Shown here piece after piece: positions 5,133 through 43,019 of a stretch of DNA of 64,000 bases; within the stretch, counting starts at the first letter, position 1; each line of letters begins with the position of its first letter. A model generated the notes under the pieces. It saw only the letters and a program-made list of their open reading frames with translations. It had not been told where the DNA came from and made no database searches. A program made the position numbers and the translations under genes. Source of the DNA: Heterodontus francisci (Eukaryota); assembly GCF_036365525.1 (NCBI RefSeq), contig NC_090375.1, positions 136,250,982-136,314,981 on the forward strand, given 5' to 3'.

Positions 5133-6640
5133 CTAGATGCTGGAAATCTGAAATAAGAACAGTAAAGTTTTGAAATGCTCTTTGGTCAAGCAGCACGGGT
5201 GGAGAAAGTAACGAAGTTAACATTTCAGGTTGAAATGGATAAGTTAGAGATGTAACAGTTTTTAAATAAGTACACGGGCAGGGAAAAGTGTTGAGGGGAG
5301 GAAAGGACAAAATGAAAGTTCTGTGATCAGGTGGATGGCAGGAGTGATTAAATGACAAAGTGATGATATTGCATGCAACTCCTGCTCCTTTACCATGCAA
5401 GTCCAGAGATGCAACACCTACCCTCTCATTTTAATTCTCCCTTCCCACTATCTAATACCCCAAACACCCCTTTCAGGTGAAACAGTTATTTACTTGTACT
5501 TCTTTCACTTTAGTATATTGCATTTGCTACCCATGATGTGGTCTCCTCTACATTGGGACAATCAAATGCAGAGTGGGTGATCGCTTTGCTGAACACTTCC
5601 ATTCAGTCCACAAGTGTGACCCTGAGCTTTTGTTCACTTGCCATTTTAATTTTCCATCCCACTCCCACTCTGACCTCTCTATCCTCAGCCTCTGGTACTG
5701 ATCTAATGAGCTGAATGGAAGCCTGAGAAACAGCAACTCACCTTTGGAGCAGGCAATTTATAGCCACCCAGAGTCAATATCGAGTTCAACAATTTCATAT
5801 TATAACAACTGCTCCCAATTTTTTTCGGGCAGCAAATACTGGTCATACTTCTGCTGTTGCCATTTATACCACCTGTAGGCCCATTGTTGGAGAATTTTCT
5901 GAACTTTGCTAATTATTACTTAACTTTGTAGAAATAGGAAAACAGGACGCAGCTTGTAGCTAACCTAACCAATGGTCAGGAAATGTAGACAGAGCAACTG
6001 ACCACAATCATCTGGCTTAGGAAGGGACAGAGCTCATGATGGATTTTGGGGAAGTGGACGCAGACTGTTCGTTACTGACTCTTCCGCTTTTATCATGTTT
6101 GTGCAACCTAGCCAGAAGTAACGGCCAGGTATAGTCTGGAGTGGGCATTGAATTAAGGAACTAGCGTGTTATGCTCGAACTAACGCTCTACTGACCTCGG
6201 ACTTTGCAAAGGGCACAGAGCTGCAGGTGGTCTTGTGGTTGTCCTGTGGTTTATGCTTAATTGTGAAACTGCTAGCTCTGCTTCTTTTATACTATATAAG
6301 TCCACGGCGATTTGTAGCTCGGGGGAGTAGCACTGGACCGCCTTTAGGTAAGGTGTGCAGTCCCATGATATCATGCAATAAAGTGTTTGTTCTCAACGTC
6401 TGAGTCCGGAGAATTTGTTCAGCAATTGGGCACAATCTGGATTTTCTCCAACACCCATCTTTTTTTCTTTACTTGTCCCATTACCACATCCTTTTATCTT
6501 GCACGATCATTCCTTTTGTCCTTTTAAATTACTCCCACTTTCCATCCTATCACAGAACTTCCCTTTTCTTCTTTCCCACTGCCCACCACCTTTCCTGCCT
6601 CTGTAATTACTTCAAAACTCTAACTACTTTCAGTTCTTCC
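5133..6640 (+). mobile_element. Penelope-like element remnant: inverted terminal-repeat piece, GIY-YIG endonuclease region and 3' region, split by a solo LTR
   Basis: About 5513-5610 translates VYCICYP*CGLLYIGTIKCRVGDRFAEHFHSV (GIY-YIG of PLEs). 5133-5240 matches, in inverted orientation, the repeat AGATGCTGGAAATCTGAAATAA seen at 14.7, 18.4, 28.7 and 42.0 kb. Confidence 0.8.
5885..6453 (+). mobile_element. Solo LTR (569 bp)
   Basis: Begins TGTTGGAGAA and ends TTCTCCAACA (10-bp inverted termini). 5-bp TSD CCCAT (5880-5884, 6454-6458). TATATAA near 6293 and AATAAA near 6377. Confidence 0.92.
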
Positions 6641-8000: not shown

Positions 8001-8788
8001 TGTCATGAAAATGTGCGAGGTCCAAGAATGATTATTTGAATCCACCAGCTGGAAACCTGAATATTAAACTGTGTAGTTGAAGGAGGTTTCTATTTGTTTT
8101 TTCCAGACAATTCCCTTCCCACAATAGCTCCCCTGTCAGGCTTAAGTAAGTAATCACGATGAACCACTCAAACCTTGCAAGCTTCGAACTCCTGTCTGCT
8201 GGATGTGATTACTTACTTAAGCCTGACAGGGGAGCTATTGTGGGAAGGGAATTGTCTGGAAAGAACAGATAGAAACCTCCTTCAACTACACAGTTTAGAG
8301 AGTACTTTCTGGACAGAACAGATCGCGAACTCCCTCGAAGGAATTCAGTCACATTGCTGTCTCCCGGAGAACCACTGAATCAGCGTCCACCTCTTCAAAC
8401 CAGAAGATTCTGGACAACTGAGTTCAATCTGGTCCCAGCTGAGTCACCAACCTCCATAGACTGTATTTCCCTGGACTCTAATTCAACCAATCTATCCTTC
8501 CCCCCCCCCCCCCCCCCACCTCCGTAACCTATTTCTGTGTGTGTGTGTGTGTTTCACAATTAGAGCATATTTTTATTGCTTTTAGTCAGTTTAAGTGCTA
8601 TAAAGTTAACCTCTTTAAACTTGAGAAAACCTGTCCGATTGGTTCTTTTAATAATCACGGCACATAAACAAGTTAAACACTCAATGAATTGGCAAGTATA
8701 GCGACTAGAAAAAAATAAATCTGCCGTGGTCAAACAAGGAGAGGGAAAAGAGGGAAGCCCTTCAACCCTTCCTCACCTGATCGTAACA
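8001..8788 (+). repeat. 5' LTR of the Gmr1-type element
   Basis: TGTCATGA...TCGTAACA termini. Shares GCTGGAAAC(C/T)TGAATATTAAACTG, GCCTGACAGGGGAGCTATTGTGG and GTGGTCAAACAAGGAGAGGGAAAAGAGGG with 18397-19429. Confidence 0.85.
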
Positions 8789-12699: not shown

Positions 12700-14075
12700 C
12701 ACTCCTCCCATAAAGCAAAATCCCAATCACCTAGGTCCCGGGAAACTGACCCAGGTTTGGGAGGAAATTCAGTACATGCTGGAGCACAAGCTGATATAGC
12801 CCAGCAGAGCAGCTGGAGTTCCCCAGCTGTGCTCTTGTCCAAGCCCGATGGCTCAACAAGGTTCTGCATTGACTACAGGAAGGTTAATGCCGTGACCAGA
12901 GCTGACTCCTACCCAATTCCCTGCCTAAAAGACTATATCAATAGAGTAGGAAATACAACCTATATAACCAAAATAGACTTGTTAAAAGGATACTGGCAGG
13001 TTCCCTTAACCACTCAAGCTAAAGAGATCTCAGCTTTTGTCACCCAAGATGGTATATTCCAGTGCCGTATGATGTCATTTGGATTAAGAAAAATGCCCCA
13101 GCTATCTTCCAAAGGCTGATGAACCAGGTAGTGATTGGCCTACCCAACTGTATAGTGTACCTGGATGATCTGTTAGTGTAAAGTGACACTCCCCCCAGGT
13201 GTCACTGTACACTAACAGATCATCCAGGTACACTATACAGCTGGGTAGACCAGTCACTACCTGGTTCATCAGCCTTTGGAAAATAGCTAGGGCATTTTTC
13301 TTAATCCAAATGACATGTTAGACACCCTCTTCCGACATGCTGGTAAATCTTGCAAAGAGCGAATTCGCTAAAGCCCAGGTAAGCTACCTAGGACGAGTTG
13401 TGGGTTAAGCTGTTGGTGGGGGCAGGGAGGTGGTGGGGGAGGTGCTGTCCAGGGCAGCAAAGGGACAGGTATTGATGGATTTTCCTGCTTCCCATGACCA
13501 AAGGGGAAATAATACAATTTTTGGGGATGTGTGGGTTTTACCACAAGTTTGTCCCAAACTTCACCATAGCCACCCCACTGACAGACTTGTTACAGAAAAG
13601 AGAGAAGGTAGTGTGGTCAGGGAGGTGCCAAACAGCTTTTAAGAGGCTAAAAGCTATCGTAACCAACGAACCGGTGCTGGCAGCTCCAAACTTTAACAAA
13701 CCATTGAAAATGGCAGTTGATGCTAGTGACGTAGGGGTAGGTGCTAGGCTGCTCCAAGATGATGAGTCGGGCATTGAGAGAATCGTTGGATGGTTCTCCA
13801 AAAAATTAAACAAACATCAAAAGAGATTCTGTACTGTGGAGAAAGAAACTTTGGGACTGTTACTGGCTCTCAAGCACTTTGAACTATATGTCTGAAATGG
13901 ATGTAGAGAGACTGTAGCTTATACTGACCACAATCCTTTGACATTTGTGCAGAAATTCCAAGACTAGAATGCAAGGCTATTTCGGTGGAGCTTGCTTTTG
14001 CAACCTTACCACCTAAAGATTGCTCACATTGCAAGGAAAAACAATGTGATAGCTGATGCTTTATTCAGAGTCTAA
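12700..14075 (+). pseudogene. Gypsy reverse transcriptase and RNase H, disrupted
   Basis: SSWSSPAVLLSKPDGSTRFCIDYRKVN, IDLLKGYWQVPL, VYLDDLLV, FLGMCGFY, AVDASDVGVGA, EKETLGLLLALKHF, YTDHNPL and NVIADAL. Confidence 0.92.
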
Positions 14076-14702
14076 CTCAGCACAGAATCATACGAACATT
14101 TGAACATACGAATTAGAACAAGAGCAGGCCACTCGGCCCTTCTAGCCTGTTCACCATTCAATAAGTTCATGGCTGAACTGATTACTCCACATTTCCACCT
14201 ACCCCTGATAACCTTCTGCCCCGTTGCTTATCAAGAATCTAACTACCTCGGCCTTAAACATATTCAAAGACTCTGCTTCCACCGCCTTTTGAGGAAGAGA
14301 ATTGCAAAGACTCACGACCCTCTGAGAGAAAAAAGTTCTCCTCATCTCTGTCTTAAATGGGTGACCCCTTATTTTTAAACAGTGACCCCTAGTTCTAGAT
14401 TCTCCCTCAAGAGGAAACATCCTTTTCACATCCACCCTGTCAACACCCTTCAGAATCTTATATGCTTCAATAAAATCGCCTCTTACTCTTCTAAATTCCA
14501 GTGGCTACAAGCCTAGCCTGTCCAATCTTTTCTCGTAAGACAGCCTGCCCATTCCAGGTATTAGTCTAGTAAACCTACTCTGTACTGTCTCCAACGCATT
14601 TACATCCTTCCTTAAACAAGGAGACCAGTCCTGTACGTAGTACTCCAGATGTGGTCTCACCAATGCCCTGTATAGCTGAAGCATAGCGTCCCTACGTTTG
14701 TA

Positions 14703-14928
14703 AAAGCAAAATACTGCGGATGCTGGAAATCTGAAACAAAAACAAGAAATGCTGGATTCACTCAGCAGGTCTGGCAGCATCTGTAGAAAGAGAAGCAGAG
14801 TTAACGTTTCGGGTCAGTGACCCTTCTTCGGAACCCGAAGAAGGGTCACTGACCCGAAACGTTAACTCTGCTTCTCTTTCTACAGATGCTGCCAGACCTG
14901 CTGAGTGAATCCAGCATTTCTTGTTTTT
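14703..14928. mobile_element. Palindromic non-coding Penelope-like terminal-repeat insertion
   Basis: 96-bp inverted arms 14736-14831 and 14835-14930 with loop AAC. TSD GTCCCTACGTTTGTA at 14688-14702 and 14929-14943. Confidence 0.9.
14800..14834 (-). ncRNA. Minimal hammerhead ribozyme motif (PLE-type)
   Basis: The minus strand reads GTT-CCGAAGA-AGGGTCACTGACCC-GAAAC-GTT-AAC: core C(C)GANGA, stem II GGGTC/GACCC, GAAA, loopless ACGT stem III. Confidence 0.7.
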
Positions 14929-17900
14929 GTCCCTACGTTTGTATTCAATTCCCCTCGCGATAAGCAAAAACATTCTATTAGCTTTCCTAATTACGTGCTG
15001 TACCTGCATACTAACCTTTAGTGATTCATGCACTAGGACACCCAGATCCCTCTGCATCTCAGAACTCTGCAATCTCTCACCATTTAGATAATATGCTTCT
15101 TTTTTATTCTTCTAGCCAAAGTGGATAATTTCCCACTTTCCCACATTATACTGCATTTGCTAGGTCTTTGCCCACTCACTTAACCTACCTATATACCTTT
15201 GTAGCCTCCTTATGTCCTCATCACAAGTTATTTTCCTATCTATCTTTGTGTCATCTGCAATTTTAGCAATCATACCTTCTGTCCCTTCATCTAAGTCATT
15301 TATATAAATTGTAAAAAGTTGAGGCCCCAGCACAGATCCCTGTGGCACACATTACAGCTTGCCAACCAGAAAATAATCCATTTATGCCTACTCTCTGTTT
15401 CTTGTTAGCTAGCCAATCTTCTATCCATGCCAATATGTTACCGCCTACATCATGAGCTTTTATTTTCTGCAATAACCTTTGATGTGGCACCTTATCAAAT
15501 GCCTTCTGGAAATCTAAGTTCAGTACTGGTTCCCCTTTATCCACAGCACATGTAACTCCCTCAAAGAACTCCAATAAATTGGTTAAACATGATTTCCCTT
15601 TCACAAAACCACGTTGACGCTGCCTGATTACCTTGAACTTTTCTAAATGCCCTGTTATAATGTCTTTCATAATAGCTTCTAACATCTTCCCTAAGACAGA
15701 TGTTAAGCTAACTGGCCTGTAGTTTCTTGCTTTCTGTCCCCCTCCCTTTTTGAATAAAGGAGTTACATTCGCTATTTTCCAATCTAACAGAACCTTCCCC
15801 AAATCTAGGGAATGTTGGAGAATTAAAGCTAACGCATCAACTATCTCACTAACCACTTCTTTTAAAACCCTAGGATGAAGTCCATCAGGACCTGGGGTCA
15901 GCCTGCAGCTCCCACAATTTGTTCAGTATCACTTCTCTGGTGATTATAATTTTCTTGAGTTCCTCCCTCCCTTCCATTTCCTGACTTACAGCTAATACTG
16001 GAATGCTACTTGTATCCTCAGTAGTGAAGACCGAAGCAAAATACCTGTTCAATTCATTTGCCAACTCCTTATTATCCATTATTAATTCCCCAGACTCACT
16101 TTCTATAGGACCAACGCTCATTTTGTGAACTTTTCTTTTTTAAATACCTATAGAATCTATATAGCTTTCTCTCGTATTCTAATTTTTACCTTCCTTATCA
16201 ATCTTTTAGTCATTTGTTGCTGTTTTTTTTATATTCTGTCCAATCTTCTGACCTGCCTCCCATCTTTGTGCAATTATAGGCTTTTTCTTTAAGTTTGATA
16301 TTATCTTTAACTGTTTTAGTTAACCACGGATATCGGGTCCCACCCTTGGCATTTTTCTTTCTCATTGAATAGTATCTATTCTGTGTATTCTGAAATATCC
16401 ACTTAAATGTCTGCACTGCATCTCTGTTGACCTATCCCTTAAGCTGATTTGCCAGTTCACTTTAGCCAGCTCTGCTTTCATGCCCTCATAATTGCTCTTA
16501 TTTAAGTTTAAAATACTTGTCTTGGAACAACTCTTCTCTCCCTCAAACTGAATGTAAAATTCAATCATACTATGATTTCTGGGGCACCTTAACTATGAGG
16601 TCATTAATTAATCCTTACTTTTTGCACAATACCAGGTCTAGTATAGCCTGCTCTCAGGTTGGCTCCATAATGTATTGTTCCAAGAAATTATCCCAAAAAC
16701 ATTCTATGTACTCCTCATCAAAGTCTCTCTGATTTTTCCAGTCTATATGTGGGTTAAAATCCCCTATAATTATTTCTGTATCTTTCTGACAAGCTGCTAT
16801 TATTTGTTCCTTTATACCCCATCCTACAGTGTGGTTAATGTAAGGTGGCCAGTACACCACTCCCACAAGTGCCTTTATGATTTCTCATCTCTACCCAAAC
16901 TGCTTCTACATCCTGGTCTTCTGAATTTAGGTCATCCCGATCTATGGCGCTAATACCATCATTAATTAACAGAGCTACCCCTCCACATTTTCCTAGCTTC
17001 CTGTCCTTCCTAAATGCCATGTACCCTTCAATATTCAGGTCCCAATCTATGTCATCCTGCAGCCATGTCTCTGTAATAGCTATCAGATTGTACTTATTTA
17101 TTTCTATTTGCGCACTCATTTCATCTGTTTTGTTTTGAATGCTACGTGCATTCAGATACAAAGCCTTTAGTTTTGTCCTTTTATTATTTTTGTAACCTCT
17201 AGCCTTATCTGTTGATTTACTCTTGGATTTGTACTCTCTGTCCCTTCCTGTCACAGTCTGTTTATCATTTCCCATATCAATACCTTTCTCTCTTGCCTTG
17301 TCTGTACTCCTTGATCTACCACATCTTCCCAAATTTGATCCCTTGCCCCCACTATTTAGTTTAAAACCCTCTCTACTTCCGTAGTTATGCGGCTTGCTAG
17401 AACAGCAGCCTCAACACGGTTCAGGTGTAGACCATCCCAATGGTACAGCTCCTACTTTGCCCAGTTCTGGTGCCAGTGCCCCACGAACCGGACCCCACTT
17501 CTACCACACCAGTCTTTGAGCCACGCATTAATTTCTCTAATCTTATTTGCCCTATGTCAATTTGCCTGTGGCTCAGGTAATACTCCAGAGATTATTACCT
17601 TTGAGGTTCTGCTTCTTCATTTGGCACCTAGTTCCTCATACTGACTATGCAGAGCCTCTTTCCTTGTCCTGCCTATGCCATTGGCACCTACATGGACCAC
17701 GACGACTGGCTCCTCCCCCTCCCACTGTAAGTTTCTCTCCAGCCCTGAGCAGATGTCCCGAACCCTGGCACCGGGCAGGCAACCCAGCTGTCTGGACTCT
17801 CGCTCTTTGCTGCAGAGAACAGTGTTAATCCCCCAACTATACTGTCCCCTACTACCACTACATTCCTTTTTTCTCCCTCCACTTGAATGGATTCCTGTAC

Positions 17901-18396: not shown

Positions 18397-19429
18397 TGTC
18401 ACAAAAACGTGTTCAGTCCAGGGAAGGTTTTTTTAATCTAATATAAAAGCAAAATACTGCAGATGCTGGAAATCTGAAATAAAAACAAGAAATGCTGGAA
18501 ATACTCAGCAGGTCTGGCAGTGGAGACAGAAGCAGAGTTAATGTTTCAGGTCAGTGACCCTTCTTCAGAACTGACAAATATTAGAAATGTAAAAGATTTT
18601 AAGCAAGTAAAGTGGGGGGTGGGGCAAGAGATAACAAAAGAGAAGGTGTTGATAGGACAAGGTCACAGAGAATAACTGACCAGAAGATCATGGAACAAAA
18701 GCAAACAGTATGTTAATGGTGTGCTGAAAGACAAAGCGTTAGTACAGAGCGGTAAAGTGCAAAGCACCCCAAGTACAAACATTTAAAAAAATGTAAAAAA
18801 CAGAAACAGTGGGTAGGTACAGTAGAAACAAACCAAACACACTAAAAAAAACTAAAATAAAATAACCAAATAAAAAAGAAAAAAATAATTTCTTTAATCC
18901 TCTGGCTGGAAACTTGAATATTAAACTGGTGCAAGCTTTGACCTCTGTCTGCTGTTTGTGATTACTTAGTTCAGCCTGACAGGGGAGCTATTGTGGAAGG
19001 GAACTTTCCGGAAAGAACAGACAGAAAAACTCCATCAGCTGCACAGTTTAGAGAGAACTTTACAGAAAGAACACACACAAGTCTCAGGACCACTGAATTT
19101 AGCCTGAAGCCAATTGAATTACCAACTTCCACAGACTGTGTATCCCTTTTATTTCTCTGGACTCTAATTTGACCAATCTATCCTTCCCAAATCTGTAACG
19201 TGTGTGTGTGTGTAAGTTAGAGCGTATATTATTTTTCTTAGATACGTTTAAGTACCATAAAGTTAACCTCTTGTCTGATTGGCTCTTTTTATGATCACGC
19301 CACCTAACCAAGTTCAACACTCACTCAATTGGCAATTATATCCACTAAAAAATAAATAAATCTGTTGTGGTCAAACAAGGAGAGGGAAAAGAGGGGAGCC
19401 TTTTGATCCCTCCTCACCTGTTCATAATA
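18397..19429 (+). repeat. 3' LTR of the Gmr1-type element, interrupted by a Penelope piece
   Basis: Starts TGTCACAAAA after a purine-rich GGAGG and ends CTCACCTGTTCATAATA; homologous to 8001-8788. Confidence 0.8.
18443..18890 (-). mobile_element. Penelope-like terminal-repeat fragment with hammerhead motif
   Basis: Same repeat family as 14703 and 28740. At 18536-18572 the minus strand reads AGTT-CTGAAGA-AGGGTCACTGACCT-GAAAC-ATT-AACT. Confidence 0.85.
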
Positions 19430-27825: not shown

Positions 27826-28739
27826 ACCCATTATGTAGCTGATAGAACACTGTCATGGACTATTTTATTAAAAACATCAGCAATTATAAACTGGATTGAA
27901 AAAATTAGGTTGCTAATGCAGAAAAGGAAAGAAAAACAGATTTGTTTATGCTTTAAAAAGTCTAGCTTTATCTCAAGTTAAAGCATAGTTGCTTTTAAAT
28001 ATCCATTCCAATTATAATTATAATGCATTATTATTGTTGTTTGAGTCAAAACAATCACAAATTATAAAGAAAGCCTTCTGGGAATATTGGATTTAACTGT
28101 AATGGACAAAACAGATGCAGATTCATTAGGACAGCAGGAGTCAGCTAAAGAATAATCCATTCAGGAAGAACAATAAATGATGCATTTTTAACTCTTCTGA
28201 TTACTTGCATGAATATGAATTTCCTGCCCACTGAGATAAATGAAAGTGAATTGACTGACTTAGTTTTGCAGGGCTTTATGGGAAGATGTTCTGTGTCTGT
28301 CCTGCTGTCAAGCTAACTTTCCTTTCACCAGAATGTATTCCTTTCATCAGAATGTATCAGAAACTCCTGATATACTATCAGTGATTTTCCATTACATGCT
28401 GATGGTGGCTTAAGTCCCTTACTGCTCCTGTAAATTCAAAACATTTAAGTTTATATACAGTTTAAATTAGGTGAGCAAGTTAATTTGTTTGTTGAACATG
28501 TTATCATAATAGTAGCCATGTTATTTTCCAGTGATGATCGATGACTATCAATCGCTAATTCTTCAGTGCAGATGGCATCATGTACCAACTATAATTGCCT
28601 AGTTGTTGACAGCCATCATGGCGCTTATCACCATTGAAAGAAACAAATTGACTAAAAATGGTATAAAGCTGTCCAAGGAGCTCCATAACATATAAGGGAT
28701 GATTCTCCAACTTACATCAACCAGCAAGGAATGTTGCCT

Positions 28740-29430
28740 CAAACAAAAACAAGAAATGCTGGAATCACTCAGCAGGTCTGGCAGCATCTGTGGAAAGAGA
28801 AGCAGAGTTAACGTTTCGGGTCAGTGACCCTTCTTCGGAACTGACAAATATTAGAAAAGTCACAGATTATAAGCAAGTGAGGTGGGGGTGGGGAAAGAGA
28901 TAACAAAGGAGAAGGTGCAGATTGGACCAGGCCACATAGCTGACCAAAAGGTCACTGAGCAAAGGCAAACAATATGTTAATGGTGTGTTGAAAGACAAAG
29001 CATTAGTACAGATTAGGTGTAAATACACTGAATATTGAACAGCAGCAAGTGCAAACCAGGTTTTTTTTCAGGTTTGCACTTGCTGCTCTTCAATATTCAG
29101 TGTATTCACACCTAATCTGTACTAATGCTTTGTCTTTCAACACACCATTAACATATTGTTTGCCTTTGCTCCGTGACCTTTTGGTCAGCTATGTGGCCTG
29201 GTCCAATCTGCACCTTCTCCTTTGTTATCTCTTGCCCCACCCCCACCCCCACCTCACTTGCTTATAATCTGTGACTTTTCTAATATTTGTCAGTTCCGAA
29301 GAAGGGTCACTGACCCGAAACGTTAACTCTGCTTCTCTTTCCACAGATGCTGCCAGACCTGTTGAGTGATTCCAGCATTTCGTGTTTTTGTTTCAGATTT
29401 CCAGCATCCACAGTATTTTGCTTTTATTTT
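28740..29430. mobile_element. Large palindromic non-coding Penelope-like insertion
   Basis: Arms of about 317 bp (28741-29057 and 29071-29393) with a 13-nt spacer. 14-bp TSD AAGGAATGTTGCCT at 28726-28739 and 29431-29444. Confidence 0.92.
29292..29328 (+). ncRNA. Minimal hammerhead ribozyme motif (PLE-type); mirror copy on the minus strand at about 28807-28843
   Basis: AGTT-CCGAAGA-AGGGTCACTGACCC-GAAA-CGT-T-AACT; stem I AGTT/AACT, stem II GGGTC/GACCC, predicted cleavage after 29324. Confidence 0.72.
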
Positions 29431-29620
29431 AAGGAATGTTGCCTGTCAGCTGCAGATACCAGGACATCAGGGGCACATCACCCTCAATTTTCCAATATTA
29501 ATGGTTGATGGTGAAGCTCCAAACTAGCAGCAATTATTTATTTCATAGGCCCTTTATTCTTAATCAGCCCTACAATCTTAAAAAAAAATACATATATATT
29601 CAAATCATTCCAAAGCTATA

Positions 29621-30915
29621 GGGCTAGATTTTACATCCCCCAAAAGAGCGGTATGGTGGCGGGGAGTGGTGTAAAATGGAGCGGAAGGCTCAGGGGGGCC
29701 CTTCCCAACCTGCTCCTGCCTCCGCCGCCATATTACGCAGGGCGGCGTCAGCCTAAAACGGCCCTCCCGTCCCAGGCCAAGCAAGGCCCTTAAGTGGCCA
29801 TGGGGATTTTACCCAGGCCCGAGAAAAGCCACCTGACAAAAGCAGGCAGCTCTCTAATGGTCTGGAGGGGCCCCCTCGTGATCGGGCACCCTGTGCCAGA
29901 TGGAGAGCTGCCCCTGCTGCCCCCACCACCCCCAACACCCAACACGCCCCTCCCCCATCCCCCCAATCGACCACCCTTGGCTCATTGGGGCTGACCGATC
30001 ACCCCTGGCGATGCAACAAAACTTATCTTGATTCTGGGGCTCCCTGACGTCGTCTTCTGTAGGCTGGGCTGCAGTCCCAGCCATAGCCACTGCTCCCAGT
30101 GGCGCTGTTGGGACTAAGAGCCACCAGCCCACTGATTGGCTGGCAGCTCTATTAGGCGGGACTCCCTGCCTCAAGCAGGTGGAAGTCCCGCCTCAGAACA
30201 ATTAAAGGCCAGGGACACGCAAAATACGAGTTGGATCCCCAGGCCAGGCGGAAGTGGTTCGCCACCTACTTTTCAGTCAGTGGAAGGCTCTCGCCCTAGC
30301 GGGTCGGATGGTGGCATGAGGGCGGCGTAAAATTGAGCGGCAGGTTCCGGGAGGCCTACCCATCTCGATTCCGCCTCCGGGCAAGTTTATGGAGGTCATG
30401 TGGGAGGACGTGGGGTGGGAAACGGCCCGCCTGCCCGAGGCCAATCAAGCCCCTTAAGTGGCCACTTAATGGCCATTTAAGGGCCCTCGCCCACCTCCAC
30501 GGATATTTTACCGGTGGCAAGCGGGTGTGCTGGGGATGTGAAAGGCCGCCCAGCGATGTCTGCCGGCCTTTCCGCGTCCCGGGGGTGGGGTGGGGGCATG
30601 GCATGCGGGCACAGGGTGCCCGATTGAGGGCCGCCCCTGCCTCCCAACCCACCCCCGGGATCCAAGATGCCCCCTCCCCCTAAATGACCACCCTAGCCTC
30701 ACCAGGGCATGACCGATCCCCCTGGTGAGGCAACCCAAACTTACCCACTCTCTCGGGTCCATGGCGTCGGCTGAGCTGCAGTCCCAGCAGTGGCCACCGC
30801 ACCCAGTGGCGCTGTTGAGACGAAGAGCTGCCGGTCCACTGATTGGCCAGCAGTTCACTGAGGCGGGACCTCCTCCCTCAAGTGAGTGGAGGTCCCACCT
30901 CGGGCCAATTAAATC
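29621..30915. mobile_element. Two tandem partial Harbinger-like MITEs
   Basis: Left TIR GGGCTAGATTTTAC at 29621. A second related unit starts near 30300, repeating GGCCCTTAAGTGGCCA, GCTGCAGTCCCAGC and CTGATTGGC blocks. No right TIR found. Confidence 0.75.
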
Positions 30916-30961
30916 CATGCAAACTAACCCATCCCCATCCTCCCTTTTGTCTCCAAAGAAT

Positions 30962-42033: not shown

Positions 42034-42034
42034 A

Positions 42035-42856
42035 AAGTAAAAGCAAAATACTGCAGATGCTGCAAATCTGAAATCAAAAACAGAAAGTACTGGAAATACT
42101 CAGCAGGACTGGCAGCATCTGTGAAGAAAGAAACAGAGTTAACGTTTCAGGTCGATGACCTTACATCAGAACTGGCAAGGGTTAGAAATGTAATAATTGG
42201 AGTCATAGTCTGAAATTGTTGAATTCAATGTTGAGTCCAAAGGGCTGTAGAGTGCATAATTGGAAAATTAGGTGCTGTTCCTTGAGCTTGCATTGAGCAT
42301 CACTGGAACATTGCAACAGGCCGAGGACAGAATGCAAGCATGGGAGCAGGGTGGTGAATTAAAATGGCAAGCAATCGGAAGCTCGGGGTGATTCTTGCAG
42401 ACTGAGCAGAGATGTTCTGCAAAGCAGTCACCTAACCTACGTTTGGTCAACCCAGTGTGGAGGAGACCGCATTGTGAGCAGTGAATACAGTATACTAAAT
42501 TGACAGAAGTACAAGTAACTTGCTGCTTCACCTGGAAGGAGTGTTTGGGGCCTTGGATGGTGAGGAGAGAGGAGGCAAAAGGGCAGGTGTTACACCCACT
42601 GTGATTGCATGGGAAGGTGCCATATGAAGGGGACGAGATGTCAGGGTGATGGAGGAGTGGACCAGGGTGTTGTGGAGGGAACAATCCCTTTGGAATGCTG
42701 ACAGGGAAGGGAGGGGAAGAAGTGTTTGGCAGTGGCTGGATGATCCTTTGGATGTGGAGGCTGGTGGGGTTGAAAGTGAGGACAAGGAGAACCCTGTCGC
42801 AGTTCTGGGAGGAAGGGGAAGGGGTGAGGGTAGAGGTGTGGGAAATGGGCCAGATA
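42035..42856 (-). mobile_element. Penelope-like element: GIY-YIG endonuclease region and terminal repeat with hammerhead motif
   Basis: ORF 42268..42684 contains CNTCPF...TCTSVNLVYCIHCSQCGLLHTGLTKRRLGDCFAEHL. At 42137-42173 the minus strand reads AGTT-CTGATGT-AAGGTCATCGACCT-GAAAC-GTT-AACT. Confidence 0.88.
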
Positions 42857-43019
42857 CCTTGCTTTCACGCCCACATTTCTGTCCGCGGTTTGCTACCACT
42901 CCTGAACCAGCTACTTACTGGGTGGTCACCTCCCAATCTCTTGCTCACTGTGGGACAGTGGCAGGCCTCTACCTGAGGGCTTAATGTTCCATGTAGGTGT
43001 GACTTGTACACAGGAGTAA

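Follow-up and report, generated by a model that had tools for sequence, protein, structure and literature searches.

Insert A, a 691 bp palindrome at 28740-29430 of the window, appears to be two 5'-truncated copies of the end of a Penelope-like element (PLE) that lie head to head within one TSD. The window is the whole stretch of DNA that was analysed, 64,000 nucleotides from Heterodontus francisci. We give this reading, in which both copies were likely made once, from one RNA template and by an enzyme acting in trans, a probability of about 0.85. The two hammerheads of A are passengers of the two pLTR ends, and A is a new instance of a published pattern of PLE insertion with passenger ribozymes.

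The insert is flanked by an exact 14 bp TSD, AAGGAATGTTGCCT, with copies at 28726-28739 and 29431-29444; over the right copy, a DNA contig covering 29412-29640 shows no other letters. Nine exact 14-mer pairs lie 600-800 bp apart in the window. Only this pair sits on both boundaries of the insert, and the other eight fall in two repeat clusters (1.9/2.6 kb and 29.8-30.8 kb). The arms (28741-29057 against 29071-29393) align over 317 nt with six substitutions and one 6 bp indel. By read majority three of the differences arose in the right arm and three in the left, which fits the expectation of drift after insertion. The left arm (28740-29057, minus strand) is a tail-less, outward-pointing 5'-truncated pLTR copy, with 28740 as a single unmatched base. 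The right arm (29060-29430, plus strand) is a 5'-truncated pLTR copy that has homologues at 14.7, 18.4 and 42.1 kb, and it alone carries a tail, 36 nt long, at 29395-29430 (plus strand). The longest stop-free stretch of A is 86 codons and its longest ATG-started frame is 28 amino acids. A tblastn search with relatives that contain reverse transcriptase (RT) and GIY-YIG domains gave no match inside the 691 bp, and the RT and GIY-YIG coding of an autonomous PLE is absent from A, which has no ORF.

An earlier reading of the sequence alone (the sequence-only reading) had described an ORF-less palindrome with arms of about 317 bp, a 14 bp TSD and one arm that is longer by about 35 bp. All of this is confirmed, with the extension now placed at 36 nt. 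It had also described a 13-nt spacer. There are indeed 13 nt between the arms (29058-29070), but 11 of these (a G, a T-run and CA) are native right-arm sequence and the joint itself accounts for only about 2 nt (29058-29059), as seen from reads of the family that continue past 29060. A 5 bp mini inverted repeat straddles the joint. To the right of A, a GC-rich repeat at 29660-30920 starts about 200 bp away; it contains an internal direct duplication (29883-30206 and 30606-30913, 73%) and has a relative at 34.5-35.2 kb.

A BLAST search of A against the window found three clear relatives, referred to here as B, C and D, and one faint one. B (14701-14930) is also a palindrome: its 96-nt arms are identical, its centre consists of 3 nt of native sequence and its left arm has a tail of about 36-39 nt. 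It therefore has the same one-sided asymmetry as A, as had been said of the 14.7-kb copy before. A 15 bp duplication (14688-14702 and 14929-14943) overlaps each end of B by 2 nt, and the repeat that hosts B has two paralogous copies without the insert. C (18440-18892, minus strand) is a single tailed arm, about 84% identical, that reaches further upstream than A's centre and has a candidate 7 bp duplication. The length of the duplication thus varies, from this candidate 7 bp to 14 bp in A and 15 bp in B. D (42034-42924, minus strand) is an older relative, a tailed pLTR about 80% identical to A's arm over 158 nt, and lies directly downstream of a fragment of a linker and GIY-YIG domain whose reading frame is broken. 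Elsewhere in the window, 5133-5806 holds an old PLE remnant with the arrangement known from textbook examples, in which a decayed minus-strand pLTR (5135-5233) faces away from a plus-strand GIY-YIG fragment (about 5360-5800).

The fragment next to D was used to identify the parent element. A HMMER search with 124 of its residues matched 1,959 proteins at E values up to 0.001. We scanned nine of the 150 listed proteins for domains, namely the seven longest (772-924 amino acids) and the two top-scoring ones. All seven long relatives have a match to RVT_1 followed by a C-terminal match to GIY-YIG, several of these below the Pfam curated cut-offs, and they align back to 42230-42924 through their residues at about 570-870 with E values of 1e-19 to 1e-23. 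Pfam returned 0 families for the 42-kb fragment itself, and a word-based search with it for longer proteins returned none from 305 candidates. GIY-YIG on 11% and 33% of the members of Atlas clusters serves as a lead only. Because the homologous pLTR of D adjoins a fragment related to proteins with RT plus a GIY-YIG domain at the C terminus, A's arms are identified, by way of this approximately 80% identical relative, as the hammerhead-bearing pLTR end of an endonuclease-bearing PLE. In the 42-kb fragment a C-x4-C-x2-C motif, so called from a reading of the motif only, precedes the GIY-YIG core. The Neptune/Nematis type is defined by a CX2-5CxxC linker motif together with CCHH in the endonuclease in the portion of Craig et al. 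(2021, PMC8557442) that we draw on. These motifs can be read in the 42-kb fragment. The linker motif points to a parent element of the Neptune/Nematis type, for which RT phylogeny is a further criterion and the RT of which is absent from the window. Typical features of insertions by endonuclease-bearing PLEs are all found in A: pLTR homology (via D), a minimal hammerhead, a one-sided tail, and an inverted truncated copy with a TSD. When collections of viral, metagenome and prokaryote sequences were scanned for patterns of the family, they gave 0, 0 and 0 matches, and second scans gave 0, 1 and 0; the sole match is only 23 nt long and was taken as chance.

Reads and contigs from four runs were aligned to 29040-29640 at 90% likeness. 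These runs were X1 (DNA contigs), X19 (raw capture reads, under the same species label), X5 (contigs guessed to be RNA and given no weight for or against expression) and X9 (another organism). The summed contig depth of X1 was not taken as copy number. The arm of A was matched at a likeness of at least 90% by 42,345 of the 11,989,820 X19 reads, or 0.35% of this capture library, and the unique flank at 29460-29640 was matched by none. As many as 1,520 capture reads run upstream of 29060 into the family's own sequence, which shows that a longer element is cut off at A's centre. One capture read and two X1 contigs, one of which is the right flank, run over the ends of the 29040-29640 stretch; with ends assigned from flank depth, one capture read and one X1 contig cross A's centre. 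The native position 29066, which adjoins this centre, is covered by approximately 2,770 capture reads.

The ends of the family copies fall into recurrent positions. Among the best 24 of 1,169 loose-end rows there are two classes of 3' ends, one at 29389 (1,738 capture reads) and one at 29425, 29428 and 29431 (5,540 together), so that the classes are 36-42 nt apart. The tail-less end at 29389, given in right-arm coordinates, is where the left arm of A ends. There is also a hotspot of 5' loose ends at 29293 (955 capture reads), and the centre of B is at this position. The centres of the two palindromes differ (29060/29071 in A, 29293/29296 in B). These varied centres, the identity of the arms as a PLE pLTR and the existence of a second palindrome support the claim of the sequence-only reading that A is a recurrent product of Penelope-type retrotransposition.

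Joints between opposite strands were also observed, and library chimeras can yield such joints. Six are among the 15 listed of 116, with head-to-head and tail-to-tail forms not distinguished. Two of these, 29289/29315 (18 capture reads) and 29322/29322 (37 reads), are at native short inverted repeats, and two others, 29292/29293 (14 reads) and 29293/29294 (11 reads), are at the 29293 truncation hotspot. The most frequent is 29126/29153, with 56 capture reads from 46 starts. This joint has no obvious microhomology and an X1 contig depth of 86, about 6.6 times the 13 of the flank, and this inversion junction is probably present at several loci. It would be explained by an inverted source copy, a duplicated region, a nearby capture target or a re-mobilised palindrome. 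The sixth joint, 29324/29394 (41 capture reads from 37 starts, and one X5 contig), links the predicted cleavage base of the hammerhead to the boundary of the tail. Cleaved templates may have left this joint, or it may stem from the amplification of a single copy. A's centre is involved in neither this joint nor 29126/29153. In the X1 contigs we also observed head-to-tail joints, 130-132 nt back within 29294-29428 and at about single-locus depth, that form retrozyme-like units of hammerhead and tail.

We compared the alleles carried by the two arms at sites that vary in the family. For this we used 30 of 40 listed variant rows (180 exist), after dropping eight outside the shared part and two at 6% frequency. 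At the 24 positions where the commonest letter is below 90%, the arms of A agree at 23, with 14.7 expected for independent draws. At two sites the arms of B carry the same letter as each other, and neither arm of A has it. From the agreement at 23 of 24 sites, both arms of A likely derive from one template, in a test that ignores linkage within subfamilies; matching arms would also be expected from one dominant young subfamily or from gene conversion between the arms. The 6 bp indel was weighed as a sign of two templates. The shorter form is present in 3,330 of 6,842 reads and the indel is ambiguous because it sits in a slippage-prone repeat.

A route to such an insert can be proposed. An endonuclease would nick both target strands 14 nt apart. 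One nick would prime reverse transcription at an outer start site to give the tailed arm, and the other would prime at an inner start site 36-40 nt upstream to give the tail-less arm. Both cDNAs would stop early, near 29060-29071, and join via a short inverted match, after which each would template the second strand of the other. The Penelope reverse transcriptase and endonuclease would be supplied in trans. Within the share given to the preferred reading, we put this two-primer route at slightly less than even odds and a snap-back of one cDNA, which would give the same product, at odds nearer one in three. Several published observations bear on these steps. In vitro, a PLE protein, predicted to be a dimer, cuts and extends both target strands; its reverse transcription begins at two internal sites, and these delimit the tail (Frangieh et al., 2024, PMC11167929, in the part available to us). 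The two classes of 3' ends in the shark family, 36-42 nt apart, match these two start sites. Arkhipova et al. (2013, PMC3846280, in part) explain junction palindromes by self-priming, with antisense RNA or DNA of the element as the template, and the tail has been ascribed to resolution by the endonuclease (PMC8557442, in part). The schemes of these two papers, like the two-primer route, make the palindrome anew at each insertion, and our data do not separate them.

A different idea is that the palindrome itself is a non-autonomous mobile unit, transcribed whole and re-inserted by Penelope enzymes, which predicts identical centres at many loci. Such a unit would have a cis-acting pLTR end on both sides, and in the available part of PMC3846280 pLTRs by themselves were enough to mobilise unrelated DNA in a rotifer. 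The 29126/29153 inversion joint, one of the 15 joints listed from 116, also looks multi-copy. The centre of A, by contrast, is seen in one of 42,345 capture reads and one X1 contig, against the approximately 2,770 reads at 29066, and the centre of B is another one. In addition, the RT start region is predicted to be paired, with the exception of the tail, in whole-length RNA. We consider this explanation unlikely for A. The suggestion that A is a retrozyme-like element that transposes itself is not supported for this copy: A's centre appears to be single-locus, B's centre differs, and retrozymes are head-to-tail tandems.

A more speculative combination concerns other copies of the family, namely that some fold-back Penelope ends are now mobile units, with 29126/29153 at several to many loci, and that the hammerhead with C at core position 4 (U4C) cuts template RNA in vivo. 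The second part is suggested by the recurrent 29324/29394 joint, which falls on the predicted cleavage base. We regard this combination as doubtful. If it is true, the genome would provide a read-out of in-vivo cleavage by PLE ribozymes and of how the inverted arm forms.

It is very unlikely, in our view, that an ordinary single-arm insertion became palindromic later, either by fold-back break repair or by trimming and homogenisation of longer, unequal arms. Later trimming and gene conversion fit the small centres and matching arms, and the window also holds two fold-back inversions that are not Penelope, in sequence of a Gypsy-type element, which means that repair of this kind does take place in the genome. 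One, at 13072-13316 in the RT region of this element, has 118-nt arms that are 95% complementary, a 9-nt centre and no hammerhead. The other, at 8065-8297, is an inverted repeat with 93-nt arms that are 98% complementary and a 47-nt centre; it lies in LTR-like sequence that by eye resembles 18.9-19.1 kb, and is possibly part of the Gypsy-type element that holds the inversion at 13 kb. However, in A as in B both arms lie within a single intact TSD, and the second arm of each ends at the recurrent tail-less end, where repair has no reason to land.

The remaining functional possibility is that A is a working RNA device, either a cleaver of transcripts in both directions or a selected source of small-RNA hairpins. 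A motif scan placed a minimal type-I hammerhead at 29292-29328 on the plus strand of the right arm, with the cut predicted after U 29324, and sequence comparison showed an identical copy at 28806-28842 on the minus strand of the left arm. The sequence-only reading had the plus-strand coordinates right, but its minus-strand copy (28807-28843) was one base off. It had also called the hammerhead in each arm complete. The motif is present in both arms but is not canonical, being minimal, with C at core position 4 and no real helix III, and no Rfam hammerhead family reached its gathering score anywhere in the 64-kb window. It consists of a 4 bp helix I, the core C3-C4-G5-A6-A7-G8-A9 plus one extra A, a 5 bp helix II and GAAA; helix III is reduced to a self-complementary ACGU, and position 17 is U. 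Core position 4 (29297) is C in 83% of the X19 reads and also in the X9 contigs from another organism, and U4C is a trait of the family, not decay of A. The 37-nt motif alone folds no better than shuffled sequences (z -0.79), so stability is no evidence for a hammerhead and the case rests on motif and context. A branch-point-like and splice-acceptor-like motif, with a putative splicing role, lies at 29279-29293 (plus strand), and its final AG is at the 5' start of helix I. It is kept in A, C and D, which represent three subfamilies, and an intron end at helix I is described for D. virilis Penelope in the available text of Cervera and De la Pena (2014, PMC4209133).

None of the 6 differences in the 317 aligned sites of the arms falls in the hammerheads, which might be taken as a sign of use. 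At 1.9% arm divergence, though, fewer than one difference is expected per 37 nt, and the identity shows no selection. Folding was predicted at equilibrium and without proteins. RNA of the full palindrome is predicted to form a long hairpin (-597 kcal/mol, 636 of 691 nt paired) in which the unpaired probability of the hammerhead core is 0.001 or less. As a consequence of the head-to-head arrangement, read-through RNA of either strand carries the antisense copy (positions 67 and 103) ahead of the sense copy (557 and 593). In nascent prefixes that stop directly behind the sense motif, helix II is predicted with a probability of 0.0 on both strands; for a single arm the value is 0.17, and for the short unit 29292-29430 it is 0.92. 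In the parts of the literature available to us, the minimal PLE hammerhead was inactive as a monomer and weakly active as a dimer (PMC4209133), and U4C considerably lowers activity in vitro, yet permits viroid infectivity (PMC3088659). A limit on the protein-free folding models is that the anole hammerhead cleaved only with protein (PMC11167929).

The earlier proposal of an orientation-independent cleaver is thus not supported, given the antisense copy that comes first both ways, the helix II probability of 0.0, the need for a second sense copy and U4C. Most likely A is inert as a ribozyme, with its hammerheads predicted to be buried in a 317 bp duplex in read-through RNA. Should the locus be transcribed, its sole plausible activity, on these models, would be that of double-stranded RNA. 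A hairpin siRNA source, also proposed earlier, is structurally possible according to the predicted fold, and siRNAs matching Penelope inverted repeats were found in transgenic Drosophila (PMC3681739, in part). No host gene was identified around A. We consider a working RNA device highly improbable.

An assembly or sequencing artefact has a negligible chance: fold-back artefacts do arise in sequencing libraries, but the arms of A differ at six sites and by one indel, the TSD frames the insert, an X1 contig agrees with the sequence across the right junction, and paralogous sites that lack the insert exist for B.

A is a clear example of a published pattern, and its value is as material for further comparison. 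The making of the inverted arm is a step left unresolved in the cited papers; this family is very abundant, and the positions of centres and ends across its copies could separate the two-primer and snap-back models. The same copies could reveal whether PLE hammerheads cut in vivo. There is also a warning for annotation in that inserts like A resemble MITEs or hairpin RNA genes.

A literature search found no description of A's family in sharks, and the supplements of PMC4209133 and of a bioRxiv preprint (10.64898/2026.07.22.740005), which deal with vertebrate motifs and families, may cover it; PMC6765202 and PMC6155905 are related reviews, in the parts available. The comparisons that follow hold for the portions of each source at hand. 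The preprint describes pLTR-derived non-LTR retrozymes that are head-to-tail tandems, and these were found in the sole chondrichthyan sampled. Like these animal retrozymes, A is ORF-less, derived from a pLTR, equipped with a type-I hammerhead and dependent on PLE enzymes. Unlike them, A is head to head with one sense motif per strand, and so lies outside the definition of a retrozyme as a tandem with at least two hammerheads on the same strand.

The two hammerheads of A are on opposite strands with about 450 bp between them, and for Schistosoma mansoni PMC4209133 describes pairs of minimal hammerheads on opposite strands, separated by 100-700 bp. A shares with the minimal motifs the short helix I, an extra base between 9 and 10.1, the G10.1-C11.1 pair, a palindromic 15.2-16.2 and the lack of a real helix III. 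It differs from the description given there in the C at core position 4 (83% of reads in A's family), in its helix II of 5 bp with a 3-nt loop and in coming from a different animal. Poseidon of Anolis carolinensis (PMC11167929) resembles the shark family in that two classes of 3' ends bound the tail and the hammerhead is upstream of the tail. By contrast, the C-x4-C-x2-C linker of D's fragment, from the motif only, points to Neptune/Nematis, and A's subfamily has no start codon in helix II.

The closest likeness is to the units of endonuclease-bearing PLEs. A typical PLE insertion has an inverted truncated copy, a one-sided tail of 30-40 bp and a TSD (PMC3846280; PMC8557442). A has the same head-to-head, 5'-truncated inverted copy with a palindrome at the junction, a tail on one side only and a TSD of variable length, which is 14 bp in A compared to 8-10 bp in the rotifer examples of PMC3846280. 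What sets A apart from these units is that both of its copies are truncated in the non-coding end, which leaves no ORF and makes the insert a near-perfect palindrome throughout.
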